This document shows, piece after piece, positions 3,663 through 62,765 of a stretch of 64,000 bases of DNA; within the stretch, counting starts at the first letter, position 1; each line of letters opens with the position of its first letter. Below the pieces are notes generated by a model. It was given only the letters and a program-made list of their open reading frames with translations, was not told the origin of the DNA and did no database searches. The position numbers were made by a program, and so were the translations under genes. This stretch comes from an uncultured Candidatus Saccharibacteria bacterium (GTDB taxonomy: Bacteria; Patescibacteriota; Minisyncoccia; Minisyncoccales; CAYUYO01): assembly GCA_964449385.1 (NCBI GenBank), contig CAYUYO010000003.1, forward strand, positions 483 through 64,482. Direction: 5' to 3'.

Positions 3663-4017
3663 AATAAATTAAAAGGTCGCAAATGTAATTAAAAAATAAA
3701 AGATAAAAAAAATGGGAATAGGATGGCAAAACAAAAAACGACTTAATAGAAAGTTGAAAAAGAGGGGTATTTTAAAAAATAAGTCAAAGAAAAAAAGGAA
3801 ATAATTAAAGTTTAGACTAAAACTAATAGAAATTAAATTGTCAGAAAAATTGGATGCTTTTAGAATACGGAGGGCTTATTATTTTAACTGTAACTATCAT
3901 ATAGTTGTTAGCAGGAAGAATTCCAGAGTATTTAATTATTATACTTTTGGATTCTGAAATATTGATTTTTTTCTTTTACTAAAAACAAGTGTGAATTTTT
4001 GCATTTGTCTTTTTCTT

Positions 4018-4046
4018 TTGACCTTCTTTTTAAAATAAAGTAGAAT
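4018..4046 (+). promoter_or_regulatory. Sigma70-type promoter of lysS (near-leaderless)
   Basis: TTGACC 4018-4023, 17-nt spacer, TAGAAT 4041-4046. The ATG at 4056 is only 9 nt after the -10. Confidence 0.55.
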
Positions 4047-4055
4047 TATACTAAC

Positions 4056-13221: not shown

Positions 13222-13698
13222 ATGGAAGACAAATTAGAAGAATTAAAGAAAAAACTAGAAGAATGTCAGAAAAAACAAGCTGAATATTTGGCTTATGCAC
13301 AAAGGACTAAGGCCGACTTCTTAAATTATAAAAAAGAAGAAACAGAAAGGATAATTGAATTTTTGAAATATGGAAATTTAGATCTGATTTTAAAAATATT
13401 GCCCGTTTTAGACAATTTTGAAAAAGCAGAAAAAGAAGTTCCTATTGAGGAAAAGGATAATAAGTTTTTACATGGGTTTTTGCAAATAAAAATTCAACTT
13501 CAAGATTTTCTGAAAAATCATGGTAGGATTGAAGAAATAAAAACGATTAATAAAAAGTTTGATCCTAATTTTCAAGAAGCAATTGAAGTAATTGAAAAAA
13601 AAGGAGTAGAATCGGGAACAGTTTTGGAAGAAATTCAAAAAGGTTATTTACTTCAAGGAAAGGTTATAAGGCCTGCCAAAGTTAAGGTCGCAAAATAA
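13222..13698 (+). CDS. grpE: Nucleotide exchange factor GrpE
   Basis: Coiled-coil N-terminus, RTKADFLNYKKE, FDPNFQEA, and a position upstream of dnaK. Confidence 0.9.
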   Translation: MEDKLEELKKKLEECQKKQAEYLAYAQRTKADFLNYKKEETERIIEFLKYGNLDLILKILPVLDNFEKAEKEVPIEEKDNKFLHGFLQIKIQLQDFLKNHGRIEEIKTINKKFDPNFQEAIEVIEKKGVESGTVLEEIQKGYLLQGKVIRPAKVKVAK

Positions 13699-13714
13699 AT
13701 TATTATATAAAAAT

Positions 13715-16699: not shown

Positions 16700-16772
16700 G
16701 CCCCCGTAGCTCAATTGGTAGAGCAGCTCCCTTTTAAGGAGACGGTCACGTGTTCAAATCGCGTCGGGGGCA
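16700..16772 (+). tRNA. tRNA-Lys (anticodon UUU)
   Basis: Cloverleaf folded by hand. Acceptor GCCCCCG/CGGGGGC, D arm GCTC-AATTGGTA-GAGC, anticodon loop CTTTTAA, T arm ACGTG-TTCAAAT-CGCGT. No encoded CCA. Confidence 0.9.
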
Positions 16773-16787
16773 CTTTTTTATTTAATA

Positions 16788-16815
16788 TTGACAAAAATAA
16801 ATTTACTTTTATAAT
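16788..16815 (+). promoter_or_regulatory. Near-consensus promoter of the downstream sRNA
   Basis: TTGACA 16788-16793, 16-nt spacer, TATAAT 16810-16815. Confidence 0.6.
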
Positions 16816-16821
16816 TAAATA

Positions 16822-17063
16822 TCTGCTCTTTTTAAGAATCTGAGAGTTAACAAAACCATCCGAGCTTCTGGGTAGTGAAGCCCAGAGCAGTAAAAGTAGC
16901 GTAGACTACTAAAGGAGGGAACGATGCCAGTTATCCAACTTAGTTGAAGCCTTGGTTGGAAGTAAAAAGTAAAGGCTTCTTTCAGACTCTCAGATTTTGG
17001 AGCAGTACAAAGCCGCGTTTCAGATCAATTTGATTGATTTGGAACGCGGCTACTTCATTTTTT
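16822..17063 (+). ncRNA. Unclassified structured small RNA (~185-nt closed core plus terminator hairpin)
   Basis: Terminal helices CTGCTC (16823-28) / GAGCAG (17000-05) and 16837-47 / 16986-96 (11 bp) enclose three hairpins. Their stems are 16868-72/16881-85, 16895-99/16906-10 and 16946-53/16972-79. A GCCGCGTT/AACGCGGC hairpin (17012-17050) and a T-run follow. G+C is elevated and there is no ORF. Confidence 0.55.
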
Positions 17064-17084
17064 ATTGGCCTAAGAATTAAAATT

Positions 17085-17093
17085 TGCTATAAT
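17085..17093 (+). promoter_or_regulatory. Extended -10 promoter of ctpA (leaderless)
   Basis: TGCTATAAT at 17085-17093, with the ATG at 17102 (8-nt gap). Confidence 0.45.
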
Positions 17094-17101
17094 GTTATGG
17101 T

Positions 17102-25503: not shown

Positions 25504-25683
25504 ATTTATAGGGAAGTGGTTAAAACCTCCTTTTGTTTTAGATATAAAGTGACGCTTTACCTATATTGTCCGACCTATTATATCTTAATAATAAACAGTC
25601 TAAAAGACTATGTCAAGAGATAAAATTATATTCCCCCGTCGATTAAACAGTCCTGTGGATTAAGCGGTAAAAAGGAGGAGTTT

Positions 25684-39022: not shown

Positions 39023-39118
39023 AATTATTAGAAATTAATTATTTAAAAAGATTTTTCGACCTTGTTGTAAAAACTTCTATTTTTATTTTCTCTTTTCATT
39101 GCTTTTTTGTCAAGCTTA

Positions 39119-48246: not shown

Positions 48247-48310
48247 ATTTTTAATTAATAATTATTTATTATTCAACCTTTTATTATTATACCAAAAAAT
48301 TACCTTAAAC

Positions 48311-48988: not shown

Positions 48989-49339
48989 TTAGAAAATTTT
49001 AGTTCCTGGTGGTACTTCTTCGTCTGGTTCTAAAATTACTGGTCGACCTTCAACACTTGCTGCTAAAAGCATACCTTGGCTTTTAATACCTTTCAAAATT
49101 TTTGGTTCTAAATTCATCACTACTACAATTTCTCTTCCAATTAAATTCTCTGGTTGATAAAATTTGCTGATTCCAGCTACTAATTCTCTTTTTTCTTCAC
49201 CTAAATCAACTTTTAATCTTAAAAGCTTATTAGATCCTTTTATCTTCTCTGCTTCAATTACTTTTCCGATTCTTAAATCAATTTTTTGAAACTCTTCAAA
49301 ATTAATCATATGTTTTATCCTATCAAAAAATCGCTCCAT
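48989..49339 (-). CDS. tRNA-binding (CsaA/Trbp111-like OB-fold) protein
   Basis: FQKIDLRIGKVIEAEKI...KLLRLKVDLGEE...SQGMLLAA. The start could be the internal ATG at 49309. Confidence 0.8.
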   Translation of the reverse strand: MERFFDRIKHMINFEEFQKIDLRIGKVIEAEKIKGSNKLLRLKVDLGEEKRELVAGISKFYQPENLIGREIVVVMNLEPKILKGIKSQGMLLAASVEGRPVILEPDEEVPPGTKIF

Positions 49340-49380
49340 TAGCGATTCTTTAGTCTTTTAAAAAATTATTCTATTATTAT

Positions 49381-51875: not shown

Positions 51876-52937
51876 TTAAATTTTAATTTCGATGACATCA
51901 CCATCTTGAACAATATAATTTTTACCTTCAGTTCTTATTAGTCCTTTTTCTCGCGCCTCGGCAAATCCCCCACTTTCTAAAAGTTTATCAGATTGGATAA
52001 TCTCTGCTTTAATAAAGTGTTTCTCAAAATCGCTATGAATCACCCCGCCGGCCTGAGGAGCAGTAGAGCCATTTTTAATTGTCCAGGCCCTGGTTTCGTC
52101 TTGTCCTGTGGTTAAGAATGTTATCAAATCAAGTAAATGATAAGTTTTTTCAATTAAATTATTGATTTTCAATTCTTCAGAAATGCCAAAAGATTTTCTT
52201 TCTTCTAAAGATAAACCTGCTCCGTCAAATTCGGTTAGAATATCCATTATAAGATAAGGATATTGATTTTTTTCAAAAACATCAATAATTTCTTTATCTA
52301 TTTCATTTTCTTTTCCATTTAATAAATATAATCTCGGCTTTAAAATAAGCAACTGATACTCTTTCAAAATCTTTTTTTCATTGTCGTTAAAATTTTGTTC
52401 CGATAAAGCTTTGCCGGCATTAAGCAGAATCTGAATTTTTCTAAGAGTTTCTAATTCAGAATTTACTTCTTTATCGTTTGCTTTAACCTTTTTTTCCAAA
52501 TCATTTATTTTTTTTTCAACGGTTGCCAGATCTTTCAAAGCCATTTCAGTATCTAAAATCTCTTTATCTCTTAAAATATCTATTGTTTGTTGTATATTTA
52601 TAATTTTGTCATTTTTAAAACCCCGTAAAACATAAACTATAGCGTCAACCTCGCGGATATTTGCCAAAAACTGATTGCCCAACCCTTCTCCCTTACTGGC
52701 GCCCTTTACTAAACCAGCGATATCAACAAATTCTATTGTCGTATAAATCTTTTTAAGAGAATTAGTTAAATTAGCCAATTTATCAACCCTTTCGTCTGGA
52801 ACGGCAACTACTCCGACGTTAGGGTCAATGGTGCAAAAAGGATAATTAGAACGATCAATTTCTTTTTTAGTTATTGTTTGGAATAAGGTTGATTTGCCAA
52901 CGTTTGGCAAACCAACAATGCCAATATGTAAAGACAT
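51876..52937 (-). CDS. ychF: Ribosome-binding ATPase YchF
   Basis: GIVGLPNVGKSTLF, FVDIAGLVKGAS, C-terminal TGS-like end. Confidence 0.95.
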   Translation of the reverse strand: MSLHIGIVGLPNVGKSTLFQTITKKEIDRSNYPFCTIDPNVGVVAVPDERVDKLANLTNSLKKIYTTIEFVDIAGLVKGASKGEGLGNQFLANIREVDAIVYVLRGFKNDKIINIQQTIDILRDKEILDTEMALKDLATVEKKINDLEKKVKANDKEVNSELETLRKIQILLNAGKALSEQNFNDNEKKILKEYQLLILKPRLYLLNGKENEIDKEIIDVFEKNQYPYLIMDILTEFDGAGLSLEERKSFGISEELKINNLIEKTYHLLDLITFLTTGQDETRAWTIKNGSTAPQAGGVIHSDFEKHFIKAEIIQSDKLLESGGFAEAREKGLIRTEGKNYIVQDGDVIEIKI

Positions 52938-52980
52938 ATTTTTTATTAATTAATTATTATTTTGTTTTATTTATTCTACC

Positions 52981-53007
52981 AAAAAACCGCCATCTTGGCG
53001 ATTTTTT
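52981..53007 (-). terminator. Repeat-family terminator copy E1, with T-tract running into TGGTAGAAT
   Basis: Plus strand reads AAAAAACCGCCATCTTGGCGATTTTTT and is symmetric, so it is bidirectional. On the minus strand an extended -10 TGGTAGAAT (52973-52981) follows directly. Confidence 0.7.
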
Positions 53008-53092
53008 CTCAGTTTTAATTATTTAAGTAGTTTTATTGGTGTTTAATCGACGCGTCTCGGTCAAGTTTTTTTAAGTTAGTTAAAGTAAGATA

Positions 53093-54070
53093 TCAATCTT
53101 GTATAGGATTAGGTTCTTTTAACTGTCCACTATCTTTATATAATTCAGGATCAATAGTTCTTGTAAAACAAGTTCTCTCTGCTTTATGTTCCCAACGTTG
53201 TTGAGAAGAATCATAAGGATAGGAATATTGAGGATAGGAATATTTTGTGTTATTGGCAGTTGAACTGAAATCCTCGGTTGAAGTTTTGAATGTGGCGCAC
53301 AGTTCAAAAGAAAACGTATCAATAATATGATATTCATATTCTAAATCAGATTCTGGATCTGTTGGGGCAATAAATCCAGAAATACTGTCTTCTAATTTAC
53401 TGAGGTTTTGAGGAAGCGTTTCTTTTTGTATCCAGTAGTTAATAATTCGGTCTTGCAGCGTTTGAAGATTGCTTACCCTTTGTTCATCAAATCTTCTCTG
53501 CCGTTGTTCTGCAGGTGTACCAATAATGAAAAAACCACAAATAATACTAACTAAGATCACAAAAGAAAGAATCCAGGCAAGTATTTTGGGAATTTTAGAC
53601 TTTATCTCCTTTCTTCTTAAATCCCAAACATAATAGCCGAAAACAGCTCCAGTTACTAAGAGTACGACAAAAACTTTCAAAAAGAACTGAATTGTTAATT
53701 CCCCACTCAGAAAACTAAAAACAAACATTATCAAATCTATAATAATAGTAACTGCTGATATAAAGAGAGTGAAATAGATTAACCATTTTCTCAATTTTAG
53801 TTCTCGTTTTTCGTAGTTGCTTACCAAATCTTTTCCCAATAGCCATGAAGTAAAAATATATACCGGGATCACTATGATAAGTATTGACGTTGATAAGCGA
53901 ACTGAATTAGCCATACTTGTATAATAAAAACTAAGCGGGTCTGGAAAAAGAGCGCTGATATATTGAATACAAAGCGTAATAAAACTAATAACACCGAGAT
54001 AAAAGGTGAAGATATTCAAAAGATGCAAAAAGACATCTTTTGGCGTACTTTTTATAGTAGTGTCGTTCAT
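53093..54070 (-). CDS. Polytopic membrane protein (DUF5671-like N-half) with extracytoplasmic C-domain
   Basis: Four to five TM helices, then a soluble domain with LPQNLSKLED...DPES..YEY...FELCATF. Confidence 0.6.
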   Translation of the reverse strand: MNDTTIKSTPKDVFLHLLNIFTFYLGVISFITLCIQYISALFPDPLSFYYTSMANSVRLSTSILIIVIPVYIFTSWLLGKDLVSNYEKRELKLRKWLIYFTLFISAVTIIIDLIMFVFSFLSGELTIQFFLKVFVVLLVTGAVFGYYVWDLRRKEIKSKIPKILAWILSFVILVSIICGFFIIGTPAEQRQRRFDEQRVSNLQTLQDRIINYWIQKETLPQNLSKLEDSISGFIAPTDPESDLEYEYHIIDTFSFELCATFKTSTEDFSSTANNTKYSYPQYSYPYDSSQQRWEHKAERTCFTRTIDPELYKDSGQLKEPNPIQD

Positions 54071-54148
54071 ATTTTTATTTTATTATACTTTTATTAACAA
54101 GATACTTTTATTATACAAGGTAAAAGAATTATTGTCGACTGAATAACA

Positions 54149-55120
54149 TTAGAATTCCGTCTTTTCTAAAATCAAATCGTTGAGTATTTTTTTAACAAGT
54201 TCAATGCTTTCCCAATCAAATATTGAAATCGGCATTACATTTTTATTTAATTCTCTAAATTTCTTTATTATCTCGGTAATAGTATCAGACGAAACTAAAT
54301 CTTTTTTGCTTATAAAAAGATACTCCGATTTTTCTAAAAGCATTTTATTATATGCCCCTAATTCATTGCGCACCGTTTTATAATCCAAAACCGGATTGAC
54401 CGAATCGGCAGTCACAAAATGAAATAGAATTTTCGTGCGTTCTATATGTCGCAAAAATTTAATCCCAAGACCCTTACCCAAAGAAGCTCCTTCAATAAGT
54501 CCGGGAATATCAGCCAGTATTAAATCAAAATAAACGCCTAAATTCGGTTCCAAAGTAGTAAATGGATAATTAGCCACTTTGATTTTGGTATTAGTCAGTT
54601 CGTTGATCAAACTTGATTTACCTACATTAGGCAACCCTATAAGTCCGACATCGGCAATCAACTTCAATTCAAGATGAATTTCGGACGATTCGCCCGGCTT
54701 TCCATATTCAAAATTTTTCGGAGAAGTATTTGTAGAAGACCTGAAATGAAAATTTCCTCTTCCTCCATGTCCGCCTTGAACAACCAATTCCCGCTTACCT
54801 ATTTTAGTTATTTCAAAATCTTGGCCGGTTTTTAGGTTATGTACTACTGTTCCTACGGGAACCATTAAAACAAGATCTTCTGCATTATGGCCATCGCGAA
54901 ATTGAGAACGGCCGTCTTCTCCGTTTTTAGCTTTAAATTCTTTTTTAAAACGGAATTTATTAAGTGCACTTAAATTAGAAATTCCTTCAACATAAATACT
55001 GCCGCCTTTACCGCCGCTTCCTCCCACGGGTCCCAGGGACATTAAATTTTTATTAAACGCCACCATTCCCTTTCCTCCCGATCCGGCTATTACGCGTATT
55101 TTTACATCATCAATAAGCAT
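54149..55120 (-). CDS. obg: GTPase Obg/CgtA
   Basis: Glycine-rich Obg fold (AGSGGKGMVAF, GGSGGKGGSIY) and G domain GLIGLPNVGKSS, DIPGLIEGAS. Confidence 0.93.
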   Translation of the reverse strand: MLIDDVKIRVIAGSGGKGMVAFNKNLMSLGPVGGSGGKGGSIYVEGISNLSALNKFRFKKEFKAKNGEDGRSQFRDGHNAEDLVLMVPVGTVVHNLKTGQDFEITKIGKRELVVQGGHGGRGNFHFRSSTNTSPKNFEYGKPGESSEIHLELKLIADVGLIGLPNVGKSSLINELTNTKIKVANYPFTTLEPNLGVYFDLILADIPGLIEGASLGKGLGIKFLRHIERTKILFHFVTADSVNPVLDYKTVRNELGAYNKMLLEKSEYLFISKKDLVSSDTITEIIKKFRELNKNVMPISIFDWESIELVKKILNDLILEKTEF

Positions 55121-55218
55121 ATTGTTAGTATAAACTAATTAAGTCTTAAACAAAACTCATAATTTTTTCGATCAATTCGTCTTTTTCTTTTTTCATATTT
55201 TATCTACTAAAACAAAAA

Positions 55219-55674
55219 TTAATCAATCTCAAATTCTATTTTATCTCCAATGTTTAAACCAATTTCTTTTGAAATACCTCCGTTTATTTCCAAAACATAT
55301 TTTGCGTTTTTCTCGGGATTTATGTTCGGGCAAAAATCTTCTTTGCAAGATTGAGTATTTTTACTGATATAAACAACTTCTTTGTTTTTATTGATCCAAA
55401 TTATATCTAAAGGAATCAAAGTATTTTTCATCCAAAAAGGATATTCTCCTTCGTCTTTAAAAATAAAAAGCATGCCTTTATCTGAATCTAACTTTTCTCT
55501 AAACATCAAACCCCGGGTTTGTTCTTGAGTGGTTATTGCCAATTCAACAGTAAAACAACTATCTTTAAAACAAACTTGGCTTTGATTTTTTGGATCGAAA
55601 GAAAATAAAATTATTATGAATATCAAGAATAAAATTACAGATAAAAAAATGGTTAATAAGAACTTTTTTTTCAT
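55219..55674 (-). CDS. DUF192-family protein
   Basis: RGLMFREKL..GMLFIF......FWMKNTLIPLDIIWI. Confidence 0.8.
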   Translation of the reverse strand: MKKKFLLTIFLSVILFLIFIIILFSFDPKNQSQVCFKDSCFTVELAITTQEQTRGLMFREKLDSDKGMLFIFKDEGEYPFWMKNTLIPLDIIWINKNKEVVYISKNTQSCKEDFCPNINPEKNAKYVLEINGGISKEIGLNIGDKIEFEID

Positions 55675-55689
55675 TAAAATTATCTTACC

Positions 55690-55716
55690 AAAAAACCGCC
55701 GAAATGGCGATTTTTT
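55690..55716 (-). terminator. Repeat-family terminator copy E2, followed by TGGTAAGAT
   Basis: AAAAAACCGCCGAAATGGCGATTTTTT. The -10 at 55682-55687 lies 7 nt before the DUF192 ATG (55674). Confidence 0.7.
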
Positions 55717-55807
55717 ATCGATACTCCGAGGAACGGATGATGTTAAAACCTGTTTTATATAAGAAAAATCACATTACTTGAGAGATGATTTTCTATTTAA
55801 AATTATT

Positions 55808-55996
55808 TTACTTCTCCCTTATAATTCTAGGAAGCCAATATATCATGGTTGCAACAAGAAGTGTCCACCAAAGCCATAATAAACCAATGAGGTATTCGTA
55901 GAAATAGAGAGCCAAGATGATGCCGAGGGAAAGCAAGCATATTTTGATTAAACCTATCTCCCACCAGCGAAACGTCCATGTTTTAAAGATTTTCAT
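55808..55996 (-). CDS. Small two-TM membrane protein
   Basis: 62-aa Trp-rich hydrophobic ORF bracketed by family terminators. No known motif. Confidence 0.45.
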   Translation of the reverse strand: MKIFKTWTFRWWEIGLIKICLLSLGIILALYFYEYLIGLLWLWWTLLVATMIYWLPRIIREK

Positions 55997-56042
55997 AATA
56001 TTATTTATTTAAAACTTTTATAGACCTTTATCTTATTCTACC

Positions 56043-56068
56043 AAAAAACCGCCTGAAAGAATAGGCGG
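56043..56068 (-). terminator. Repeat-family terminator copy E3, followed by TGGTAGAAT
   Basis: CCGCCT (56049-54) / AGGCGG (63-68) with an A/T run. Extended -10 at 56035-56043. Confidence 0.65.
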
Positions 56069-56125
56069 AAATTAGTTGGCATCCTCAGTTTAAAACCCAT
56101 ATTTTAATGGGAAATCTGGTTATTC

Positions 56126-56268
56126 TTAAACTGTCTTGGCAACATACGGCTTTATTTTATTCCAAGGAGCATATTTTGATTTATACCACCTTGATCAACT
56201 GTTTTTTCTCCTGTTAAAATCTTTTCTGTTAAACCCCACGATTTTTTCATTATTGCTATATGTTCCAT
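56126..56268 (-). pseudogene. Frameshifted 5' fragment of an ASCH-domain gene
   Basis: Hand translation gives MEHIAIMKKSWGLTEKILTGEKTV, then a frame loss. Shifting the reading frame by one base restores SRWYKSKYAPWNKIK, the usual continuation in ASCH proteins as I remember them. The reading frame ends after ~45 codons where repeat copy E3 begins. Confidence 0.5.
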
Positions 56269-56279
56269 AATTTTACTGT

Positions 56280-56618
56280 TTATTTTCCGGCAGATCTGTC
56301 AGACCAAACAAGGAAAAGTTTCTTTTTGAAACCTCCTCTTTCTTTTCTTCGCTGTTCCTGTTTTTCTTCGACAAATTCAAAACTTATATTTTCACTTTCA
56401 GCAATAGATTTTATTAGCTCCAAAACATCGGCAAGTTCTTTTGCTAACTCGCTTTTTTCAGCTTCTATTACCTCTTTAACTTCCTCAATCAGTTTTTTCT
56501 TTAGTTCTTTCTTAAATTCATATTCTTCCATAACTCTCAATTCGTATTTGCCATTATTAGCTTTTATAATTTCAGGGATTTTATCTCTTATTAATTTTTT
56601 ATGATAAAACTTTTCCAT
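56280..56618 (-). CDS. MazG-like / phosphoribosyl-ATP-pyrophosphohydrolase-like NTP pyrophosphatase
   Basis: KLIRDKIPEII N-terminus and EExxE-type helices (LIEEVKEVIEAE, ELADVLELI). Confidence 0.7.
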   Translation of the reverse strand: MEKFYHKKLIRDKIPEIIKANNGKYELRVMEEYEFKKELKKKLIEEVKEVIEAEKSELAKELADVLELIKSIAESENISFEFVEEKQEQRRKERGGFKKKLFLVWSDRSAGK

Positions 56619-56634
56619 TTTTTAATTTTAACAT

Positions 56635-56656
56635 AAAAACCGCCGAAATGGCGATT
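56635..56656 (-). terminator. Repeat-family terminator copy E4, followed by TGTTAAAAT
   Basis: AAAAACCGCCGAAATGGCGATT. Extended -10 at 56625-56633, 6 nt before the ATG at 56618. Confidence 0.65.
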
Positions 56657-56818
56657 AATTGCGAGGGCTCAACTCTGAACAAAGTTCGATGTCCTAGACG
56701 AATATCGTTATTCGTAGACAACGATACTCTGGCGATATCTCGAAGATGAAACGCCCGCAAGATTAAACCGTAGCTTAACCTTCATTAATAGACATTTATA
56801 ATTTTATATGGAATCTTG

Positions 56819-56863
56819 GAAAAAAAGAAAAGAGCCCCCGGCGAAAAATATCACCGAAGGCTC
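56819..56863 (-). terminator. Strong intrinsic terminator of the G+C-rich 203-aa gene
   Basis: Minus strand reads GAGCCUUCGGUGAUAUUUUUCGCCGGGGGCUC followed by UUUUCUUUUUUU. Confidence 0.7.
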
Positions 56864-56899
56864 AAGAACTCGAGAGAGTTAAACTCTCAAATCTTTGGT

Positions 56900-57511
56900 T
56901 CAGAACTTCCACTTCCGAGCGGACGAAACGCCCAAGACGTCGCAGCGAAAGTCATCAAAGTAGCTGCAGCTATAGAGACAGACCGAAAAGAAGTAGCCAA
57001 TAACGACGCGGCAGCTATCCGAATCCACAGATGACGTTCGAACATAAATATTTTTGAATAGGCGTTCGTTAGTGGTCAAGTAATAGCCGATGATGGTGTA
57101 AATCATCGCTTGAGCTGTGGGCACTTTGTCGTCTTCGCCGAGAAGAGCTTGCTGCTCTTCCCAGTTCTTTCCGAAAGAGTTATCCACTGGGGTCTTGCGA
57201 ATCAGCTGCCAGCTTGCCTCGCTGTGTTTCTTGGAGAATGACTCCTTGTTATACCACGACTGGTCGTAGAACAACTTGGAATCCATCTTTCCGTGAATCT
57301 CAAGAATCGAGAGCGGGAAGATTGCCACCAGGATGTAAGTCTCCTTTGTTTCCTGAAGCACCGCTTCAGAAAAAGGAATCTCAGATAGAACAAGGGTTTG
57401 CTGGCGGGTCGGGTTAACTCCGAAATGCTGGATGGCCTCCTCGATGCCGAAGAAGTTCTTGCCCATGATTTCACGGGCACGCTTCTGACTGGTCGTCGAC
57501 TTAGTTTTCAT
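56900..57511 (-). CDS. Hypothetical 203-aa protein on a G+C-rich segment
   Basis: GGAGG lies 6 nt before the ATG at 57511. Overlapping spurious ORFs in other frames and on both strands show locally raised G+C. I cannot assign a family. Confidence 0.7.
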   Translation of the reverse strand: MKTKSTTSQKRAREIMGKNFFGIEEAIQHFGVNPTRQQTLVLSEIPFSEAVLQETKETYILVAIFPLSILEIHGKMDSKLFYDQSWYNKESFSKKHSEASWQLIRKTPVDNSFGKNWEEQQALLGEDDKVPTAQAMIYTIIGYYLTTNERLFKNIYVRTSSVDSDSCRVVIGYFFSVCLYSCSYFDDFRCDVLGVSSARKWKF

Positions 57512-57564
57512 GGCATACCTCCAATCTTTATTTCCGATTCGTTCGGATTTACGTCTTGTCTCTT

Positions 57565-57621
57565 TATGAGACGAGCATTTTAGAAATCAGTTTAACTGAC
57601 GTCCAAAATGCTCATCTCATA
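57565..57621 (-). promoter_or_regulatory. 17-bp stem-loop in the ~130-nt 5' leader of the 203-aa gene
   Basis: Plus-strand arms TATGAGACGAGCATTTT (57565-81) and AAAATGCTCATCTCATA (57605-21) pair with one G-U. An inner TCAGT/ACTGA stem is present. Candidate promoters are TGTTATAAT (57649-57) and TTGACT-17-TGTAAT (57663-91). Confidence 0.5.
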
Positions 57622-57745
57622 GTGTTCTGAACCATATTTAAAAGAACTATTATAACACTGTTATTACAACAAATTGTTAAATAAAAGTCAAGATTAAAAA
57701 TCAAATTTAAATTCACTAGCTTAATTATTCTATCATTTACTATAT

Positions 57746-58123
57746 CTATTTGATTTTATTCAAATTTCCATTCAAGAATTGAACCTCAATGGCTTCTAAT
57801 TCATCTTTACAGAATTCTGGGCTTGGATTTAAGACAAATATCTTTTTTTGGAGAATAAATGCCATTCCTATTTCCATAAGCGTATTTGCTCCAATATAAT
57901 TTTCCTTATCGTCTTTTGTGTAATTCATTACCAGAATCGCATCAGATTTTTTTAGGTTTTCATTAAATTTCTCCATCGCTTTTCTTTTAGCTGGTGGAGA
58001 TATTGGATCTGGCATCGGGTCTTTTTCTGGAACAATTACTTTGTGATCCTGTTGTTCTAAAATTTCCTTGGTTTCCTCAAATTTTTCAAGGAAAGACATA
58101 TTTCCTATAATTGTAATTTTCAT
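57746..58123 (-). CDS. Nucleoside 2-deoxyribosyltransferase-like protein
   Basis: MKITIIGNMSF N-terminus and GANTLMEIGMAFILQKKIFVL, resembling the NDT/Rcl catalytic-Glu helix. Weak call. Confidence 0.45.
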   Translation of the reverse strand: MKITIIGNMSFLEKFEETKEILEQQDHKVIVPEKDPMPDPISPPAKRKAMEKFNENLKKSDAILVMNYTKDDKENYIGANTLMEIGMAFILQKKIFVLNPSPEFCKDELEAIEVQFLNGNLNKIK

Positions 58124-58159
58124 AATTTTGTTTAGTTAATTATTTTATCTTATTCTATC

Positions 58160-58182
58160 AAAAAACCGCCTTCTTGGCGATT
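58160..58182 (-). terminator. Repeat-family terminator copy E5, followed by TGATAGAAT
   Basis: AAAAAACCGCCTTCTTGGCGATT. Extended -10 at 58152-58160. Confidence 0.65.
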
Positions 58183-58372
58183 GATTGAGGCGTCTCGATT
58201 TCTCGAAAGGCTCACAAAACTGCTTTGCCCCAGTCTAAAACCAAGGGTTTGAGGGTAATTTTGAGTATTTTAAGGCGTTGTTTCATAACGTCTTCCGGTC
58301 ATGGTTATTTTAACACAAAATGAGACAAATGAGTCAGTGCTTAAGAATACTTCAGTAGAATTGATCCATAAA

Positions 58373-58726
58373 TTAATATCGCTTTGCGTATCCAATAATC
58401 AAATATAATACCCCTGAAATAATAGGAGAAAGCATATTAATCATGAAATTTGCCTCTGTTATTAATCCTAAAATAAAACCTATTATTATCGGAACAACAA
58501 TAAGATATCCTCCAACTTTTTCGTACTTCCATCCAAGAACTAACCCGATAAAAATCAAGGGATACATTGCCAGAATGGTATTATCCCATATTGAATAATC
58601 TGGACTAACAAATGGCAAGGGATTTCCGTAACCAAAATAAAACGGTAAACCGAATATTATTATCGCTAAAGCAATAATTCTGGCAAACCATTTTATAACC
58701 TGTATTTGTTCTTTGTCTAATTTCAT
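58373..58726 (-). CDS. Four-TM membrane protein, unknown function
   Basis: 117-aa hydrophobic ORF with no recognisable motif. Confidence 0.5.
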   Translation of the reverse strand: MKLDKEQIQVIKWFARIIALAIIIFGLPFYFGYGNPLPFVSPDYSIWDNTILAMYPLIFIGLVLGWKYEKVGGYLIVVPIIIGFILGLITEANFMINMLSPIISGVLYLIIGYAKRY

Positions 58727-58785
58727 AATATTTTATTAATTATAATATTTTTAAATTAATTTTAATCAACCTTTATTTATATAAT

Positions 58786-58989
58786 TTATAATTTGTAATT
58801 AAATATTTTTTCAATCGGCTGCTTAAAAACAAGGGCAATTTTGAAGGCCAATTCCAGAGAGGGTATGTATTTATTTTTTTCCACGGCAATTATTGTCTGT
58901 CTGGTTACCCCGCACTTGCTCGCCAGTTTTTCCTGGGTCATATTATGTTCGGCGCGGAAAACTTTTATTCCGTTATTCATCTGCGCCAT
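58786..58989 (-). CDS. XRE-family (YozG-like) helix-turn-helix regulator
   Basis: MTQEKLASKCGVTRQTIIAVEKNKYIPSLELAFKIALVF. Confidence 0.85.
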   Translation of the reverse strand: MAQMNNGIKVFRAEHNMTQEKLASKCGVTRQTIIAVEKNKYIPSLELAFKIALVFKQPIEKIFNYKL

Positions 58990-59368
58990 ATTTTTTATTG
59001 AAATAATGATAAGATATTGAGTAAATTGTAATCAGTAACAGAGCGATATAACAGAAGGTCTCCCCAAGTAATTTAAGATAAAAATTTTCACTACCCATAG
59101 CTATAAATATTAGAAAAAGCCCGAGTAAGGAGAGAAGTATGGTTGCTATACTATAGGTTATTTGAGAAGCTCTGCCGCTGACTGAAATAACTCTTTCATC
59201 CACTATAATCTTTTTAAATCTATTTTTTACTAAAAAAAGAAATAGCATTCCAATAAGTATGCCAGAAATTGCTAAATAAAAATTACTAACAATAACTGCC
59301 TCCCATACTATAACTCCAATCAAAAGGCCGATTAAAGTTCTGACTTTTTGATATCGTTTGTAATCCAT
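58973..59368 (-). CDS. Four-TM membrane protein (DUF2178-like) paired with the XRE regulator
   Basis: 131-aa polytopic protein overlapping the HTH gene by 17 nt. Confidence 0.55.
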   Translation of the reverse strand: MDYKRYQKVRTLIGLLIGVIVWEAVIVSNFYLAISGILIGMLFLFLVKNRFKKIIVDERVISVSGRASQITYSIATILLSLLGLFLIFIAMGSENFYLKLLGETFCYIALLLITIYSISYHYFNKKYGADE

Positions 59369-59408
59369 ATAGTCTGTAAGTTACATTTAAGTAAAGTTTA
59401 TATTACTA

Positions 59409-59437
59409 ATTGTAAAGTATTCTTTACATTGAGTCAA
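59409..59437 (-). promoter_or_regulatory. Promoter of the membrane-protein/XRE pair
   Basis: Minus strand reads TTGACT (59437-32), 17-nt spacer, TACAAT (59414-09). Confidence 0.5.
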
Positions 59438-59467
59438 TAGCCTATTTATTAACAGGTAAAATATAAA

Positions 59468-59504
59468 CAAAAAAATGCCAGAACGGCGATTTTCTAAATG
59501 GCAT
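59468..59504 (-). terminator. Repeat-family terminator copy E6 (variant)
   Basis: ATGCCA (59475-80) / TGGCAT (59499-504), with AATCGCC retained in the loop and a T/A run outside. Confidence 0.55.
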
Positions 59505-59640
59505 AATTTTGTAATATTTTTAGATAAAATGAGAGTACTAGCATCCTCAGTCTAGTACTGGGGTTTTAAGAGGAATTTAGGCGGTTTGAGGTGTATCTTA
59601 CTGACGCGTTTCGGTCGGGGCGTTTTTAATATTATACTTA

Positions 59641-59817
59641 TTATCTGCCTAAAAATTGAAAGGCTTGGTAAACTAAAAAGGCCGGCCAAACCAAGGCTTT
59701 TAAAAATCCGATAACTCCCATATAGAATGTTGTGGCGTTACCGATAAAATAGACGGCCGCACCAATTATCCCTAAACCATAAACAGCTGACCCGCCATGA
59801 CGAATATGTTCTTTCAT
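59641..59817 (-). CDS. 58-aa two-TM membrane protein (below the ORF-track cutoff)
   Basis: Hand translation: MKEHIRHGGSAVYGLGIIGAAVYFIGNATTFYMGVIGFLKALVWPAFLVYQAFQFLGR. It has its own family promoter (TAGTATAAT, 59856-64) and a terminator downstream. Confidence 0.55.
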   Translation of the reverse strand: MKEHIRHGGSAVYGLGIIGAAVYFIGNATTFYMGVIGFLKALVWPAFLVYQAFQFLGR

Positions 59818-59863
59818 ATTTTTTTATAGTTTTATTAATTATTAACCTTTACTCTATTATACT

Positions 59864-59889
59864 AAAAAACCACCCTTTTTAAAAGGTGG
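59864..59889 (-). terminator. Repeat-family terminator copy E7 (variant), followed by TAGTATAAT
   Basis: AAAAAACCACCCTTTTTAAAAGGTGG. Confidence 0.6.
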
Positions 59890-60030
59890 AGTATAATACC
59901 CATATAAATTAACAGGAGTGATAAACTCTAATATGCTGCGGGGACTCTATTCGAACCACAGCTTCATTTTATATTCAAAACGCTGTATTTTCCAGTTCGA
60001 ATCTTAGACTGATATCTCATTCAATAACCC

Positions 60031-60846
60031 TTATGATTTCCGATTAAACGCGAATATGGCCGCAGAAATCATAACTGCAGAAAAAACAATAAGAAATAAA
60101 GCATTAATGTGAATCGGATATAAAACAATGCTCTTTATAATTTCCGGAGGAATTTGAGTATTAAGGATGATTTGCCTAAAAGCGTCTACGCCATAGGTTA
60201 AAGGATTAATTTTGGAAATAATTGTCATCCATGTCGGCACCGCAGTCAGTGGGAAAAATGCTCCCGAAAGGAAAAACATAGGGAAAATAAGTACCTGCAT
60301 TAAGATCCCGAAGCTCTCGGTTGTCTTCATGAGGGAAGATATAAGAAGCCCCATGCCGGATATTGCAAAAGACAAAAGAAGCATGAAGAGGAAAAGCTCC
60401 GGGATGATAGTAAAATGAATGCTTATACCAATAAGGGGAGCGAGAATTAACAATATCAGCCCCTGAAGAGCGGCAATGGTGGTAGCTCCCAATGTTTTAC
60501 CAATAGCAATAGAAGTTCGCGATACCGGCGCCACAAGAATCTCTTTTAAAAACCCGAATTCTCTATCCCAAACCGTGGAAACAGTTGAGAAAAATGCTAC
60601 TCCCATTATACTCATTGCAATAATACCAGGATACATAAATTGGATGAAATCTATGCCGAAATTCCCTTGAGAGAGCGTTTGCCTAAGTCCCACGCCAAAA
60701 ATAAAGAGAAACATTAACGGTTGGAAAAGTGTTGAAACAATTCGCGTCTTATCTCGTGTGTAGCGAATTATTTCCCTCTGCCAAATTGTGAATATTGCTT
60801 GAAAAAAATACATAATTTCAATATTAATGTCTTCGCATTCGCGCAC
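60031..60846 (-). CDS. ABC-2-type transporter permease
   Basis: Six TM segments and the ABC-2 pattern (IWQREIIRYTRDK, WMTIISKINPLTY). The start may be the internal ATG at 60813. Confidence 0.85.
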   Translation of the reverse strand: MRECEDINIEIMYFFQAIFTIWQREIIRYTRDKTRIVSTLFQPLMFLFIFGVGLRQTLSQGNFGIDFIQFMYPGIIAMSIMGVAFFSTVSTVWDREFGFLKEILVAPVSRTSIAIGKTLGATTIAALQGLILLILAPLIGISIHFTIIPELFLFMLLLSFAISGMGLLISSLMKTTESFGILMQVLIFPMFFLSGAFFPLTAVPTWMTIISKINPLTYGVDAFRQIILNTQIPPEIIKSIVLYPIHINALFLIVFSAVMISAAIFAFNRKS

Positions 60847-61786
60847 GCATATGATCTTTATCAGAGGCCTCTTCTTCCCTAATTTTTCGACCAGTTAAAG
60901 AAAGAAACACATCGTCAAGCGTTGGTTTCCGCAATTCAATAGAGTCAATCTTTGTGTCAAGTTCATTAAAAAGCCGCGGCAAAAATTTTTCTCCCTCTGC
61001 AACTTCCAACTGAAGAACGCCATTTTCTTCTTTTACTTCTTTATCGTAACGCTGCTCCAATTCTTTTTTGAGGTTATCTTTTTCTGCGCTTGTCATTCGA
61101 ATAACATCTCCGCCGACCATCTTTTTAAGCTGAAGCGGCGAATCAAGCGCAACTATCTTGCCGTTATCAATAATAGCGATGCTATCGCAATATTCGGCTT
61201 CATTCATATAATGGGTGGTCATAAAAATTGTCATTGACCGTTCTTTTTTTAATTTCAAGATGTAATCCCAAAGGTGGACTCTAGTCTGCGGGTCAAGGCC
61301 CAAAGTCGGCTCATCTAAAAAAAGCACCTGCGGATAATGAATAAGTCCTCTGGCTATCTCAAGCCGGCGCTTCATCCCTCCGGAAAAAGTTCTAATAATG
61401 CTTTTCCTGCGGTCCCAAAGGTCAACCAATCGCAAAACTTCCTCTATTCGCTTTTTGTATTCTGTTTTTGGCACCCTGTAAAGCCTTGCGTGAAAACGAA
61501 GATTTTCTTCTGCTGTTAGGCGGTCATCCAATGAAGGGTCTTGGAAAACGAGGCCGATGGACTTCCTTACTTCATCTCTTTGTGAGAGAATATTAAAATT
61601 ATTAATTATAGCTCCGCCTTCTGTCGGTATCAAAAGAGTTGAAAGCATATTAATGGTAGTGGACTTACCGGCGCCATTGGGTCCAAGAAAACCGAAAATT
61701 TGTCCCCTCTCCACTCCAAAGGATATATGGTCAACGGCCGTAAAACCGTTGAATTTTTTGGTTAAATTCTCAACCTGAATTATCAT
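60824..61786 (-). CDS. ABC transporter ATP-binding protein (DrrA/CcmA-like)
   Basis: Walker A GPNGAGKST, signature FSGGMKRRL, Walker B LFLDEPT. Confidence 0.95.
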   Translation of the reverse strand: MIIQVENLTKKFNGFTAVDHISFGVERGQIFGFLGPNGAGKSTTINMLSTLLIPTEGGAIINNFNILSQRDEVRKSIGLVFQDPSLDDRLTAEENLRFHARLYRVPKTEYKKRIEEVLRLVDLWDRRKSIIRTFSGGMKRRLEIARGLIHYPQVLFLDEPTLGLDPQTRVHLWDYILKLKKERSMTIFMTTHYMNEAEYCDSIAIIDNGKIVALDSPLQLKKMVGGDVIRMTSAEKDNLKKELEQRYDKEVKEENGVLQLEVAEGEKFLPRLFNELDTKIDSIELRKPTLDDVFLSLTGRKIREEEASDKDHMRARMRRH

Positions 61787-61795
61787 AAACTCTTT

Positions 61796-62044
61796 TTATT
61801 TATTGGTCTTTTTAATAATCTCACTGATAACTTTCAGTTTATCGGCCAAATGAGATGCAATTTTTTCCAAATTTTCAAGTTTGGAAAAAGCCAGCATATC
61901 GTTGCCAAAACCAAAAACCAATAGTTTATCTCCCCTTTCAAGCTTCATCTTTTGGCGCGCCTCAACCGGCACCACAACCTGTCCCTTCTCTCCAAGAGTG
62001 GTTGTTCCGTAAAAAGACCTATTCTTCTTATTTTTTTTAATCAT
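61796..62044 (-). CDS. AbrB/MazE/SpoVT-family DNA-binding protein
   Basis: GQVVVPVEARQKMKLERGDKLLVF swapped-hairpin motif. Start moved to the ATG at 62044 because the promoter lies inside the longer track ORF. Confidence 0.72.
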   Translation of the reverse strand: MIKKNKKNRSFYGTTTLGEKGQVVVPVEARQKMKLERGDKLLVFGFGNDMLAFSKLENLEKIASHLADKLKVISEIIKKTNK

Positions 62045-62089
62045 ATGTTTATAAATAAATCCTAAAAGTAGGAAATGTATGATGTTAAC

Positions 62090-62118
62090 ATTGTAACAAA
62101 ACATAAACTACCTGTCAA
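62090..62118 (-). promoter_or_regulatory. Promoter of the abrB-like/ABC transporter operon
   Basis: Minus strand reads TTGACA (62118-13), 17-nt spacer, TACAAT (62095-90). Confidence 0.55.
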
Positions 62119-62149
62119 ATTAATGTTTTCAGACGCTGAAAATGGTACC

Positions 62150-62174
62150 AAAAAAAACCGCCCAAATGGCGATT
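62150..62174 (-). terminator. Repeat-family terminator copy E8
   Basis: AAAAAAAACCGCCCAAATGGCGATT. Confidence 0.65.
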
Positions 62175-62318
62175 CTTTGGAGTTTCTCAGTCCCGAATAA
62201 AGTTCAATATCCTAGACGGGTATGGGTCTTGGACGTCTTAAAGCCGTTGCAAAATTAGCTTCAAAATAGGCCTCTCGGTCGCTTAAGCTAAACAAGTGTA
62301 ATCCTAGTATGTTATTTC

Positions 62319-62765
62319 TTATCGCCCTGGATAAATGGATGAAAGTTGAATTGTTTTTGCAGTATAGCTTCCGTCAGAGTTTTGATCACCATTAACCGTA
62401 ATTTGTTTGCCAATTTCAACATCATTTATTGATCCCTCGGTTGTTTTTGATATTTGGGTAGAATCTGAAAAAAAGATAATTTTTGACCCACCGTCTGGTA
62501 TTTTCAAAGTTAAACTTTGCTCGTCTTTATTAATAATTTCACCAGTAAGAAAACCTGCCTCGGCTCCTCTCGTAATTCCCCTCTGGGCACTTCCTGCCAT
62601 GTTTCCCTGAAAAAGTTGCTGACGTTCTTCCTCCGATAGATTTTGAAAATTCTGACCAGAGAATTGACCTAAAGGACTTTTAACTTCTCCATATTTCATC
62701 CCTCCGTAAAATATTCCACTCCCTACTATAATAATTGCAATAATAATTGGTAGTAATTTTTTCAT
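62319..62765 (-). CDS. Secreted protein with DUF5666-like C-terminal beta domain
   Basis: Signal/TM, Gly/Gln-rich linker, then IIFFSDSTQISKT...ITVNGDQNSDGSYTAKTIQL. Confidence 0.55.
   Translation of the reverse strand: MKKLLPIIIAIIIVGSGIFYGGMKYGEVKSPLGQFSGQNFQNLSEEERQQLFQGNMAGSAQRGITRGAEAGFLTGEIINKDEQSLTLKIPDGGSKIIFFSDSTQISKTTEGSINDVEIGKQITVNGDQNSDGSYTAKTIQLSSIYPGR

Follow-up and report, generated by a model that had tools for sequence, protein, structure and literature searches.

The stretch analysed here (the window) comprises 64,000 nucleotides of contig CAYUYO010000003.1 from an uncultured Candidatus Saccharibacteria bacterium and contains, between 52.9 and 62.3 kb, an array of genes separated by a recurring hairpin-promoter module. 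As the first-pass annotation of the window had noted, all genes in this interval are on the minus strand. In transcription order, Pfam searches and open reading frames (ORFs) gave MacB/FtsX; DUF5666; an AbrB/MazE-like protein; an ABC ATPase with an ABC-2 permease; a 58-aa ORF; DUF2178 with an HTH_3 protein; DUF7670; a nucleoside deoxyribosyltransferase-like protein; a GC-rich 203-aa ORF; a MazG-like protein; a 62-aa ORF; and finally DUF192, Obg, DUF5671 and YchF. The array thus mixes two housekeeping genes, obg and ychF, with small accessory genes. In a gene map of the whole window, the genes of the first 52 kb mostly overlap or are tightly spaced, and the few terminators there have unrelated stems; two promoters without a hairpin, TTTTTTGGTATAAT and TTTTTTAGTAGAAT, are located at ~48.3 and ~48.9 kb. 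The modules are dense at 52.9-62.3 kb because this part consists of single-gene units, whereas the first 52 kb are mostly organized in tight operons.

We refer to the intergenic gaps of the interval as E1 to E8. Five near-identical hairpins and three variants lie between the minus-strand genes from 52.9 to 62.2 kb, as originally annotated. The pattern AAAACCGCC-N5-GGCGR, allowing at most one mismatch, matches only at 52983, 55692, 56636, 58162 and 62154; with seven matches at these five loci against 0.02 expected, the occurrence of the motif in the window is not random. The hairpin had been described as absent from the first 52 kb, which is correct for canonical copies, as there is no match in positions 1-52900, but a close variant of the whole module is found within this range (Table 1). 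Read on the coding strand, here the minus strand, the stem AAUCGCC/GGCGGUU contains a U.G wobble, whereas the plus strand has a C.A mismatch at that position; the element therefore reads best as coding-strand RNA. The copies have 22-33 bp in common at 94-100% identity, spanning the stem through to the -10 box. At seven of the eight sites (the five canonical ones, E3 and E7), scans detected a GC-rich stem-loop with a U-tract directly after it, as in an intrinsic terminator; all seven are on the minus strand and 3′ of minus-strand genes. The annotation of a hairpin at each of the eight gaps holds overall, but the copy in E6 is degenerate. That the hairpins are bidirectional applies to E1 and E2, where a T-run is also present on the plus strand, but not to the other three of the five canonical copies.

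At six sites (E1, E2, E3, E4, E5 and E7) the hairpin runs straight into a -10 box. The six boxes that had been quoted for these sites, among them TAGTATAAT for E7, are correct; the box is TGn-extended in five of the eight gaps, and that of E7 is a plain TATAAT. In E2 and E4, the start codon (ATG at 55674 and 56618) follows 7 and 6 nt past the -10, respectively, which is a leaderless geometry. The other units have AT-rich leaders of 30-40 nt, as in E1, where the ychF ATG is located at 52937 and the leader is ~35 nt long. The genes following E6 and E8 have separate promoters, TTGACT-17-TACAAT (59437-59409) and TTGACA-17-TACAAT (62118-62090). With terminators fused to extended -10 boxes, the units look insulated and separately promoted in form, as had been proposed.

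From this geometry, the hairpin (AAAAAUCGCC-N5-GGCGGUUUUUU on the coding strand) and its U-tract would constitute an ordinary intrinsic terminator that ends the upstream transcript. The DNA of the U-tract would pass directly into an extended -10 promoter, TTTTTTG(G/A)TA(G/T)AAT, which would start the next gene either as a leaderless mRNA, with the ATG 6-8 nt past the -10 as in E2 and E4, or with a short AT-rich leader. TCGCCA, the stem's left arm, is located 17-18 bp upstream of the -10, at the -35 position, and matches TTGACA in four of six positions; this -35-like arm might be the reason why T, and not C, is kept opposite the G.

Leader-bearing units have a further short sequence in common, AAAGGTC(G/T), which recurs 8-12 nt past the -10 and 25-35 nt ahead of the ATG. 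It is found on the minus strand near 56020 (E3, AAAGGTC just 3′ of the -10) and near 59850 (E7, the related AAAGGTT), in the window gaps 3663-4055, 13639-13714, 25504-25683, 39023-39118 and 48247-48310, and in L041, L101, L105, L116, L120 and L179 (L-numbers denote loci compared with the window). It is too distant from the ATG for a Shine-Dalgarno sequence and looks like a conserved element at or just past the transcription start.

To survey the hairpin in other genomes, we scanned a collection of one genome per species with the pattern AATCGCC-N5-GGCGGTTTTTT, which fixes the hairpin alone. It retrieved at least 119 stretches, ~85 of those listed being labelled as Patescibacteria or candidate phyla radiation (CPR), a group that makes up a small share of the collection. 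Labels among the matches listed include Nealson-, Portnoy-, Wildermuth-, Staskawicz-, Doudna-, Komeili-, Magasanik- and Peribacteria, Paceibacterota, Parcubacteria and 'Saccharibacteria'. In these matches, a TAnnnT box is located directly 3′ of the hairpin in 101 of 142 copies, with 83 having the strict form G[GAT]TA[GTA][AGT]AT. Positions left free by the pattern are nevertheless conserved (n=141; G+1 in 116, T+3 in 124, A+4 in 107, T+8 in 109), and the sequence 5′ of the stem is A-rich across the retrieved copies. The ATG is 6 nt away from the box in 25 of 96 copies, 7 nt in 14 and 8 nt in 11, together 50. Copies sit 3′ of tRNA genes as well as of protein genes. From the geometry and this position-specific conservation we infer that the composite terminates, promotes transcription and provides leaderless starts.

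In the loci retrieved by the hairpin, a sample that is selected for it, the canonical stem has 152 copies, compared to at most 11 for any other stem. We therefore turn to a sample not chosen on the hairpin, 316 kb of CPR metagenome loci that were retrieved with an unrelated motif. Here the (T/C)CGCC..GGCG(G/A) family was the commonest stem family, with 47 of 165 hairpin+T5 sites; its U.G form was the commonest single stem (18), and unrelated stems had at most five occurrences each. The sharing of one hairpin by unrelated genes had been read as a sign that the units were assembled by a common mechanism. Recurrence of the hairpin with its -10 box in so many stretches argues against this reading, since at the level of the lineage the hairpin is largely a generic terminator. 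It is well supported as a preferred, though not universal, CPR terminator, and the composite as the preferred intergenic punctuation of Patescibacteria in general, apparently their usual signal for gene ends and gene starts.

We found no prior description of this CPR hairpin-promoter composite in the literature, including a preprint on the TM7x transcriptome, which states that validated small RNAs do not exist. Among known systems, it resembles the intrinsic terminators of compact genomes that overlap the next promoter: a GC-rich stem, a short loop and a U-tract directly 3′ of genes or tRNAs, with the next transcription unit beginning within a few bases. Such stems, however, usually share no sequence, whereas AAUCGCC/GGCGGUU with its fixed U.G is the commonest across the superphylum and, further, stands at a fixed distance from an extended -10, with its left arm at the -35 position. 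Extended -10 (TGn) promoters with leaderless mRNAs have been mapped in Actinobacteria and Deinococcus (PMC3898074, PMC4007540, PMC3160421). These likewise have TGnTAnnAT followed by ATG 6-8 nt on, without a Shine-Dalgarno sequence, but the CPR case is proposed from sequence geometry and has its promoter fused to a terminator. A terminator stem conserved in sequence across so deep a lineage is unusual and suggests an added constraint, such as the -35-like left arm or a lineage-specific factor. Patescibacteria are a huge, mostly uncultured group whose transcription signals are essentially undescribed; if upheld experimentally, the consensus would offer a ready terminator-promoter part and a rule for calling leaderless starts in them.

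Competence genes are common in CPR bacteria, which depend on taking up DNA, and one specific sequence recurring as inverted pairs 3′ of genes could also serve in DNA uptake and, where paired, act as a terminator in addition, comparable to the DNA uptake sequence (DUS) of Neisseria and the uptake signal sequence (USS) of Haemophilus. We rejected this explanation, to which we assign a negligible probability, on density: the 64 kb of the window contain ~5 copies, and complete genomes of ~640 kb have a few exact ones each among the matches listed. In addition, half-sites outside hairpins reach only ~2-4 times a crude expectation, the copies are invariably oriented with transcription, and the asymmetric U.G pair suggests that the motif is read as RNA.

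The spacers between stop codon and hairpin, 90-250 nt long, are GC-richer, fall into families and contain conserved sequence that the first-pass annotation had not reported. Four modules were defined by an nhmmer search of the fetched CPR loci and a subsequent scan of metagenomes that was based on the conserved core of one family. All spacers but that of E7, seven of the eight, contain such conserved non-coding modules. Module 'd' is ~100 nt long, with the ordered blocks CCCGACCGAGACGCG, AATTTCCCCTTAAAACC-NN-GGTTCTAGACC and GGGGC/GGGGAGC; its window copies are in E5, E6, more weakly E3, and partially E1. Module 'b' (AAACAGGTTCTAACATCGTCC-N6-7-GGAGC) has a window copy in E2 and reaches 7-8 copies per 8 kb in L105. 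Module 'd-prime' (GAGCAGGCTAGTGCTCGGTTCGAGCGACCGAGC) is found in E5, and E8-type modules, matched in the window at E=7e-19, are in E8 and E4. Outside its E8-type module, L165 has no detectable similarity to the window in the compared loci, neighbouring genes included. The 5′ part of the E4 element matches L176 (E=1.2e-19), and with its position between two terminators the element is a candidate for an independent small transcript. Where the 3′ end of E8-type homologues could be aligned, all nine of nine finish in an AATCGC(C/T)-type hairpin.

Table 1. Hairpin-promoter modules and spacer modules of the window
Feature	Position	Strand	Description
E1 module	52973..53003	-	hairpin AATCGCC-AAGAT-GGCGGTT 52985-53003, T-tract, extended -10 TGGTAGAAT, hexamer 52973-52978
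Partial 5′ part of 'd', E1 (GACCGAGACGCGTCG...)	53025..53065	-	HMM E=0.19; nhmmer to 'd' loci E=0.008-0.017; weak
E2 module	55682..55712	-	hairpin 55694-55712, T-tract, TGGTAAGAT, -10 hexamer 55682-55687
'b' motif, E2 (AACAGGTTTTAACATCATCCGTTCCTCGGAG)	55716..55757	-	HMM E=1.9e-4; antisense = last codons of L173-type serine recombinase genes
E3 module	56035..56068	-	variant hairpin CCGCC-N10-GGCGG 56049-56068, T-tract, TGGTAGAAT, -10 hexamer 56035-56040
Weaker 'd' element, E3	56078..56141	-	family HMM E=0.011; single-sequence matches to 'd' loci E=3.6e-4 to 0.045
E4 module	56625..56656	-	hairpin 56638-56656, TTTTTA, TGTTAAAAT, -10 hexamer 56625-56630
E4 element	56658..56799	-	between terminator of 203-aa gene (56832-56863) and E4 hairpin; 3′ part E8-type
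E5 module	58152..58182	-	hairpin 58164-58182, T-tract, TGATAGAAT, -10 hexamer 58152-58157
'd-prime' trailer, E5	58185..58224	-	corresponds to sequence following tRNA-Asn or 'd' at integrase-free sites
'd' element, E5	58225..58304	-	nhmmer E=1.5e-15; alignments A3, A6; TGTTAAAAT box and GACTCATTTGTCTCATTTT repeat just upstream
E6 degenerate hairpin	59476..59489	-	TCGCC-GTTCT-GGCA, 3-bp GC core
'd' element, E6	59539..59621	-	nhmmer E=4.6e-18
E7 module	59856..59889	-	variant hairpin CCACCTTTT-AAAAGGGTGG 59870-59889, T-tract, AGTATAAT, -10 hexamer 59856-59861
E8 hairpin	62156..62174	-	AATCGCC-ATTTG-GGCGGTT and T8 run
E8-type module, E8	62175..62282	-	85% identity to L165 over 130 nt including hairpin
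Close variant of whole module, outside 52.9-62.3 kb	49329..49347	-	AATCGCT-AATGG-AGCGATTTTTTGATAGGAT (AGCGATT), then TTTTTTGATAGGAT

Several loci connect modules 'b' and 'd' to large serine recombinases. Read antisense, long 'b' copies translate as L-P-L-x-D-A-F-R-T-I-D-W..., with synonymous differences between copies. In L173, a 380-aa ORF with a recombinase zinc-ribbon domain (Zn_ribbon_recom) ends in the antisense 'b' motif, and the hidden Markov model (HMM) of 'b', which matches window E2, also matches the 3′ end of this ORF (E=3.3e-3). In L150, a full-length 509-aa large serine recombinase ends inside 'd', its last codons, N-W-L-P-stop, being the reverse complement of CTAGGGGAGCCAGTT; in L145, a partial integrase-family ORF (480 codons, incomplete at the contig end) has its stop codon 41 nt away from 'd'. 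Ten further loci have matches to the recombinase C-terminus only, 18-75 aa long and in eight cases with E<=1e-3. Small antisense ORFs (LPLLDAFRTIDW...), considered as independent genes, were reinterpreted as relics of recombinase C-termini and tRNA ends: they read a shared nucleotide motif in different frames (GLEP vs FRT), and a full-length ORF carries the motif C-terminally.

The loci L150 and L176 are 99.7% identical over 641 nt up to the GGGGAGC block of 'd' and unrelated thereafter, one running into the recombinase and the other into 'd-prime' and a terminator. They represent a strain-level junction between presence and absence of an integrase, in another lineage than that of the window. 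The breakpoint also gives no support to the AAAACC-NN-GGTTC palindrome of 'd' as the crossover site, because it is located ~27 nt further on, at GGGGAGC; the invariance around the NN of the palindrome is partly imposed by our search pattern.

As an independent test, we picked five homologues of the L150 recombinase (L184-L188, 45-58% identity) on protein similarity alone. The family is abundant; most of its named members come from Nealson-, Pace-, Brenner- and Parcubacteria, and a few bear the label Deltaproteobacteria or KSB1. Sequence past the stop codon is available for four of the loci, L184 being cut off by the contig edge; in these four, the recombinase is the last gene in a block of small mobile-element-like genes, and host genes run convergently towards it. 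According to ARAGORN, a tRNA-Asn(GTT) overlaps the recombinase 3′ end by 15 nt in two of the five loci; in one, the called recombinase ORF crosses a tRNA-Ser(TGA), and the other two have tRNA-3′-like fragments. In alignment A6, 'd' aligns with the T-arm and acceptor end of tRNA-Asn. Integrase-free sites (tRNA-Asn in L179; 'd' in L176, window E5 and L183) continue with AGGTTAGTGCTCGG..., that is 'd-prime', and then a hairpin; occupied sites continue with CAGTTAGG... into the recombinase. We infer that 'b' and 'd' are tRNA-3′-end-like attachment (att) sequences of serine-integrase elements and 'd-prime' their trailer; 'd' itself would be a pseudo-tRNA, called by neither ARAGORN nor Rfam. In one of the homologue loci (L185, 4471-6340), tRNA genes for Ser, Trp, Thr and Tyr are interleaved with GIY-YIG endonuclease fragments and adjoin the 3′ end of the serine recombinase.

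A protein-coding 'd' was ruled out by frame-by-frame translation of the L150 copy, whose core has stops in all six frames. A riboswitch or leader of the downstream gene was ruled out by orientation: in 35 of 36 cases 'd' points the same way as the gene 5′ of it, whereas the downstream gene is convergent in 9 of 29, so 'd' belongs to gene 3′ ends. The modules 'd', E8-type and E4, each of which has a terminator, could still be functional RNAs rather than scars, namely a multi-copy family of tRNA-derived small RNAs or elements of 3′ untranslated regions with promoters of their own, which integrases target as they do tRNAs. The ~70% identity of 'd' over 36 diverse, nearly gap-free copies fits this explanation, as do its co-orientation with the upstream gene, the TAAAAT box at a fixed distance 5′ of it, often with a GTCTCA-N3-GTCTCA repeat, the location of the E4 element between two terminators, the 85% identity of E8-type modules between genomes that are otherwise dissimilar in the compared loci, and the G.U pairs of small stems, which favour the coding strand. 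However, RNAalifold gave no consensus fold for 'b' (37 sequences) or 'd' (36 sequences) on either strand, and for the E8-type module only a 6-bp hairpin besides the terminator. ARAGORN does not recognize the modules, Rfam 15 gives no known RNA family for the window at gathering or relaxed thresholds, with no match to any spacer at E<=10, and detects only tRNAs in eight module-rich loci, and in several loci the upstream ORF ends within a few nucleotides of the element, leaving no room for a promoter. We consider this explanation unlikely.

The GTCTCA-N3-GTCTCA direct repeat lies immediately 5′ of (TG)nTAAAAT in the window (58305-58335, minus strand) and in L135, L137, L141, L147, L150, L161 and L176; GAGAC repeats in opposite orientation are present inside 'd'. 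Repeat and box together look like a promoter bound by a regulator or an arm of the att region to which a protein binds. In L165 (6960-7000), an in-frame fragment resembling the Obg N-terminus, IDDVKIKVKAGSGG, is located directly 5′ of 'd', which suggests a rearrangement that severed an obg copy at the 5′ edge of the element.

A 'b', 'd' or 'd-prime' module lies within 160 nt upstream of only 22 among 136 canonical hairpins, and nine hairpins follow tRNAs; the hairpin is therefore not simply part of a mobile element. With only 16% of copies linked to any mobile-element relic, a cassette mechanism cannot be read from the hairpin either. As an alternative, the hairpin-promoter module could be a mobile or copy-pasted repeat in the manner of repetitive extragenic palindromes (REP), bacterial interspersed mosaic elements (BIME), Correia elements or miniature inverted-repeat transposable elements (MITEs), its near-identity being due to local copying and not to selection for a consensus. 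Similarity between the window copies reaches beyond the stem, over as much as 33 bp at 94% identity, and the closure of E8-type modules by the hairpin would fit as well. Other loci have their own locally uniform hairpins (GCCACCTCG..GAGGTGG about eight times in L183, GCCCGAG..CTCGGG in L105), and in each of L019, L030, L097 and L104 two copies are preceded by the same 45-nt sequence. It thus seems likely that entire spacer units were to some extent copied locally, given that individual loci show such uniform hairpins. The copies, however, keep their stems but differ in their loops, neither terminal inverted repeats nor target duplications were seen around the hairpins, no REP-associated tyrosine transposase (RAYT) or other transposase was found in the region, 77% of the canonical copies have neither a linked module nor a tRNA, and the stem is common to lineages as distant as Paceibacteria-type groups, Doudnabacteria and contigs with the label Saccharibacteria. 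As an account of the hairpin-promoter module, a mobile repeat is thus improbable, if slightly less so than the functional-RNA explanation is for the spacers.

REP/BIME in E. coli, Correia elements in Neisseria and BOX in pneumococcus are mosaic intergenic repeats with transcription signals. The resemblance to the window lies in modular, multi-copy intergenic pieces ('d', 'b', 'd-prime', E8-type and hairpin) that supply terminators and promoters in varying combinations. In contrast to those repeats, which are restricted to one species or genus, the modules described here are common to very distant genomes and trace to tRNA ends and integrase gene ends.

Between the gene blocks of the window lie co-oriented direct repeats that resemble the tRNA 3′ end and are taken as att relics: E2 has 'b', E3, E5 and E6 have 'd', and E1 has part of a 'd' copy. 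Elsewhere, 'b', 'd', 'd-prime' and E8-type modules would together form a tRNA-3′-end-like attachment region for large serine recombinases, whose last codons overlap the 3′ end of tRNA-Asn, tRNA-Ser or the 'd' pseudo-tRNA, and integrase-free sites run on into the 'd-prime' trailer and a terminator. The array would most likely be an old accumulation of small units, delivered or mobilized by integrases that were later lost or moved, together with the anchoring tRNA. The hairpin would terminate such units and ordinary genes alike, without being the recombination site. The best explanation for the window, which we regard as likely, is accordingly one of two layers: generic CPR terminator-promoter punctuation over an old, now integrase-less build-up of integrase-delivered gene units. 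The second layer probably applies to the window as judged from the relics alone, no integrase or nearby tRNA being left. The broader intuition of the first-pass annotation that the units were assembled survives on this other evidence, att relics in seven of eight spacers and different genes beside ychF in relatives, but not on the hairpin.

Accretion of non-autonomous units is known from streptococcal integrative and conjugative elements, in the form of cis-mobilizable elements (CIMEs). In tRNA-associated islands, as here, the integrase adjoins a tRNA 3′ end, degenerate tRNA-3′-like repeats separate accessory blocks, occupied and unoccupied sites occur in pairs, and gene content differs between relatives. 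The present case differs in several ways: the enzyme is a large serine recombinase with C-terminal codons that overlap the tRNA end, 'd' provides a conserved pseudo-tRNA as alternative site, the units have only 1-3 genes, and the window lacks both integrase and anchoring tRNA. The spacer modules suggest that a main route of small accessory genes into these tiny genomes is through serine integrases that target tRNAs and a pseudo-tRNA decoy site, and they could serve to mark islands in CPR metagenome bins. A more far-reaching version is a serine-recombinase cassette platform specific to Patescibacteria, with 'd', 'd-prime', E8-type modules and the hairpin-promoter as working parts and with 'd' and E8-type modules also expressed as a multi-copy family of tRNA-derived small RNAs. 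We regard it as doubtful, on a par with the functional-RNA explanation; if true, promoter-carrying units captured and shuffled at tRNA-like att sites would make it a functional analogue of integrons with different components.

An integron in the strict sense, with hairpins or spacers as attC-type sites for an integron integrase, had also been considered. The genes are indeed small, co-oriented and mostly accessory, each is followed by one structured, recombination-linked spacer, and the content of neighbouring genes differs among relatives. But no tyrosine recombinase or IntI was called from 46 kb of the window to ~2.6 kb past its end, nor an integrase of any kind; there is no attI, and neither strand of the spacer elements has a conserved long imperfect-palindrome fold of the attC type, which would span 57-141 bp with R''/L''-L'/R' boxes after each ORF. 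Further, the hairpin is a 7-bp stem with a U-tract found 3′ of ordinary genes and tRNAs across CPR, the units have their own terminators and promoters (the -10 box or the TTGACA-17-TACAAT type) where integron cassettes are mostly promoterless, and the recombinase tied to the spacer modules elsewhere is of the serine type. An integron is thus very improbable.

Several observations weigh against the two-layer explanation. We found no recombinase in the array (tblastn) or within ~4 kb past the window end, and no recombinase domain in any gene from 46 kb to ~2.6 kb past the end (Pfam); there is no tRNA in 52-66.6 kb, the only one in the window being a tRNA-Lys at 16700. The housekeeping genes obg and ychF adjoin modules and would be unusual as island cargo. 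The assignments of 'd' in E1 and E3 are weak, and the remainder of the E7 spacer has no homologue in any fetched locus. The ~70% identity of 'd' across distant genomes exceeds what would be expected of a decaying scar, for which reason 'd' may have a function of its own. The explanation also does not account for the lineage-wide preference for one particular stem sequence. Finally, ten contigs of this species show unchanged gene order over the whole array at 99.7-100% identity, which indicates that nothing is moving in it now, and the sole difference between strains, a 616-bp insertion with a switch to 93% identity at the obg/DUF5671 junction in two contigs, carries no modules.

This insertion (L006, 12465-13080, and L007) corresponds to window positions 54155-54163, directly 3′ of the obg stop codon. 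It holds two small ORFs, one of them weakly similar to HAD/Hydrolase_3, apparently a split gene, and the fall of the adjacent DUF5671 gene to 93% identity marks a recombination breakpoint within the species.

Comparison of synteny, which had been suggested as a check, gave a divided result: strains show no presence/absence variation, but relatives with 84%, 81% and 75% YchF identity have unrelated genes beside ychF, save for a gene of the DUF5671 family. At 75-84% YchF identity, the differing neighbours could also reflect a general loss of gene order. The same kinds of spacers are clear in L179 and L183, and one is present in L181. L179 has an intact tRNA-Asn, 'd-prime' and a hairpin, followed by small genes with 'b' relics.

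In L183 (669-7009; 81% YchF identity), ~10 consecutive small co-oriented genes form an array more regular than that of the window, each unit having its own terminator, a long 'b' of ~110 nt and then the repeated local hairpin leading into a TTGACA promoter. In L181 (6307-8561; 75% YchF identity), a block of Fer4, DUF5320 and DUF134 genes upstream of ychF is exactly duplicated in tandem, spacers included.

Within the array, the 203-aa ORF (56900-57511, minus strand) has 45-58% GC, compared to 31% for the window, and a strong 13-bp terminator of its own; it has no Pfam or PHROG match and is probably foreign DNA. PHROG searches with eight array proteins gave a single weak match, of unknown function. 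The interior of E3 (56153-56269, minus strand) contains a 38-codon ORF that reads MEHIAIMKKSWGLTEKILTGEKT... and goes on in a shifted frame with SRWYKSKYAPWNKIK..., which we took to resemble a frameshifted ASCH-type N-terminus; a 47-aa reconstruction had no Pfam match, and we dropped the ASCH-like pseudogene as unverified. Far from the array, the 330-nt gap 3′ of the tRNA-Lys (16773-17101, plus strand) consists of GC-rich, hairpin-forming sequence, for example GCCGCGTTTCAGATCAATTTGATTGATTTGGAACGCGGC; it has no Rfam match at the gathering threshold and may be a non-coding RNA or another att-type relic beside a tRNA.

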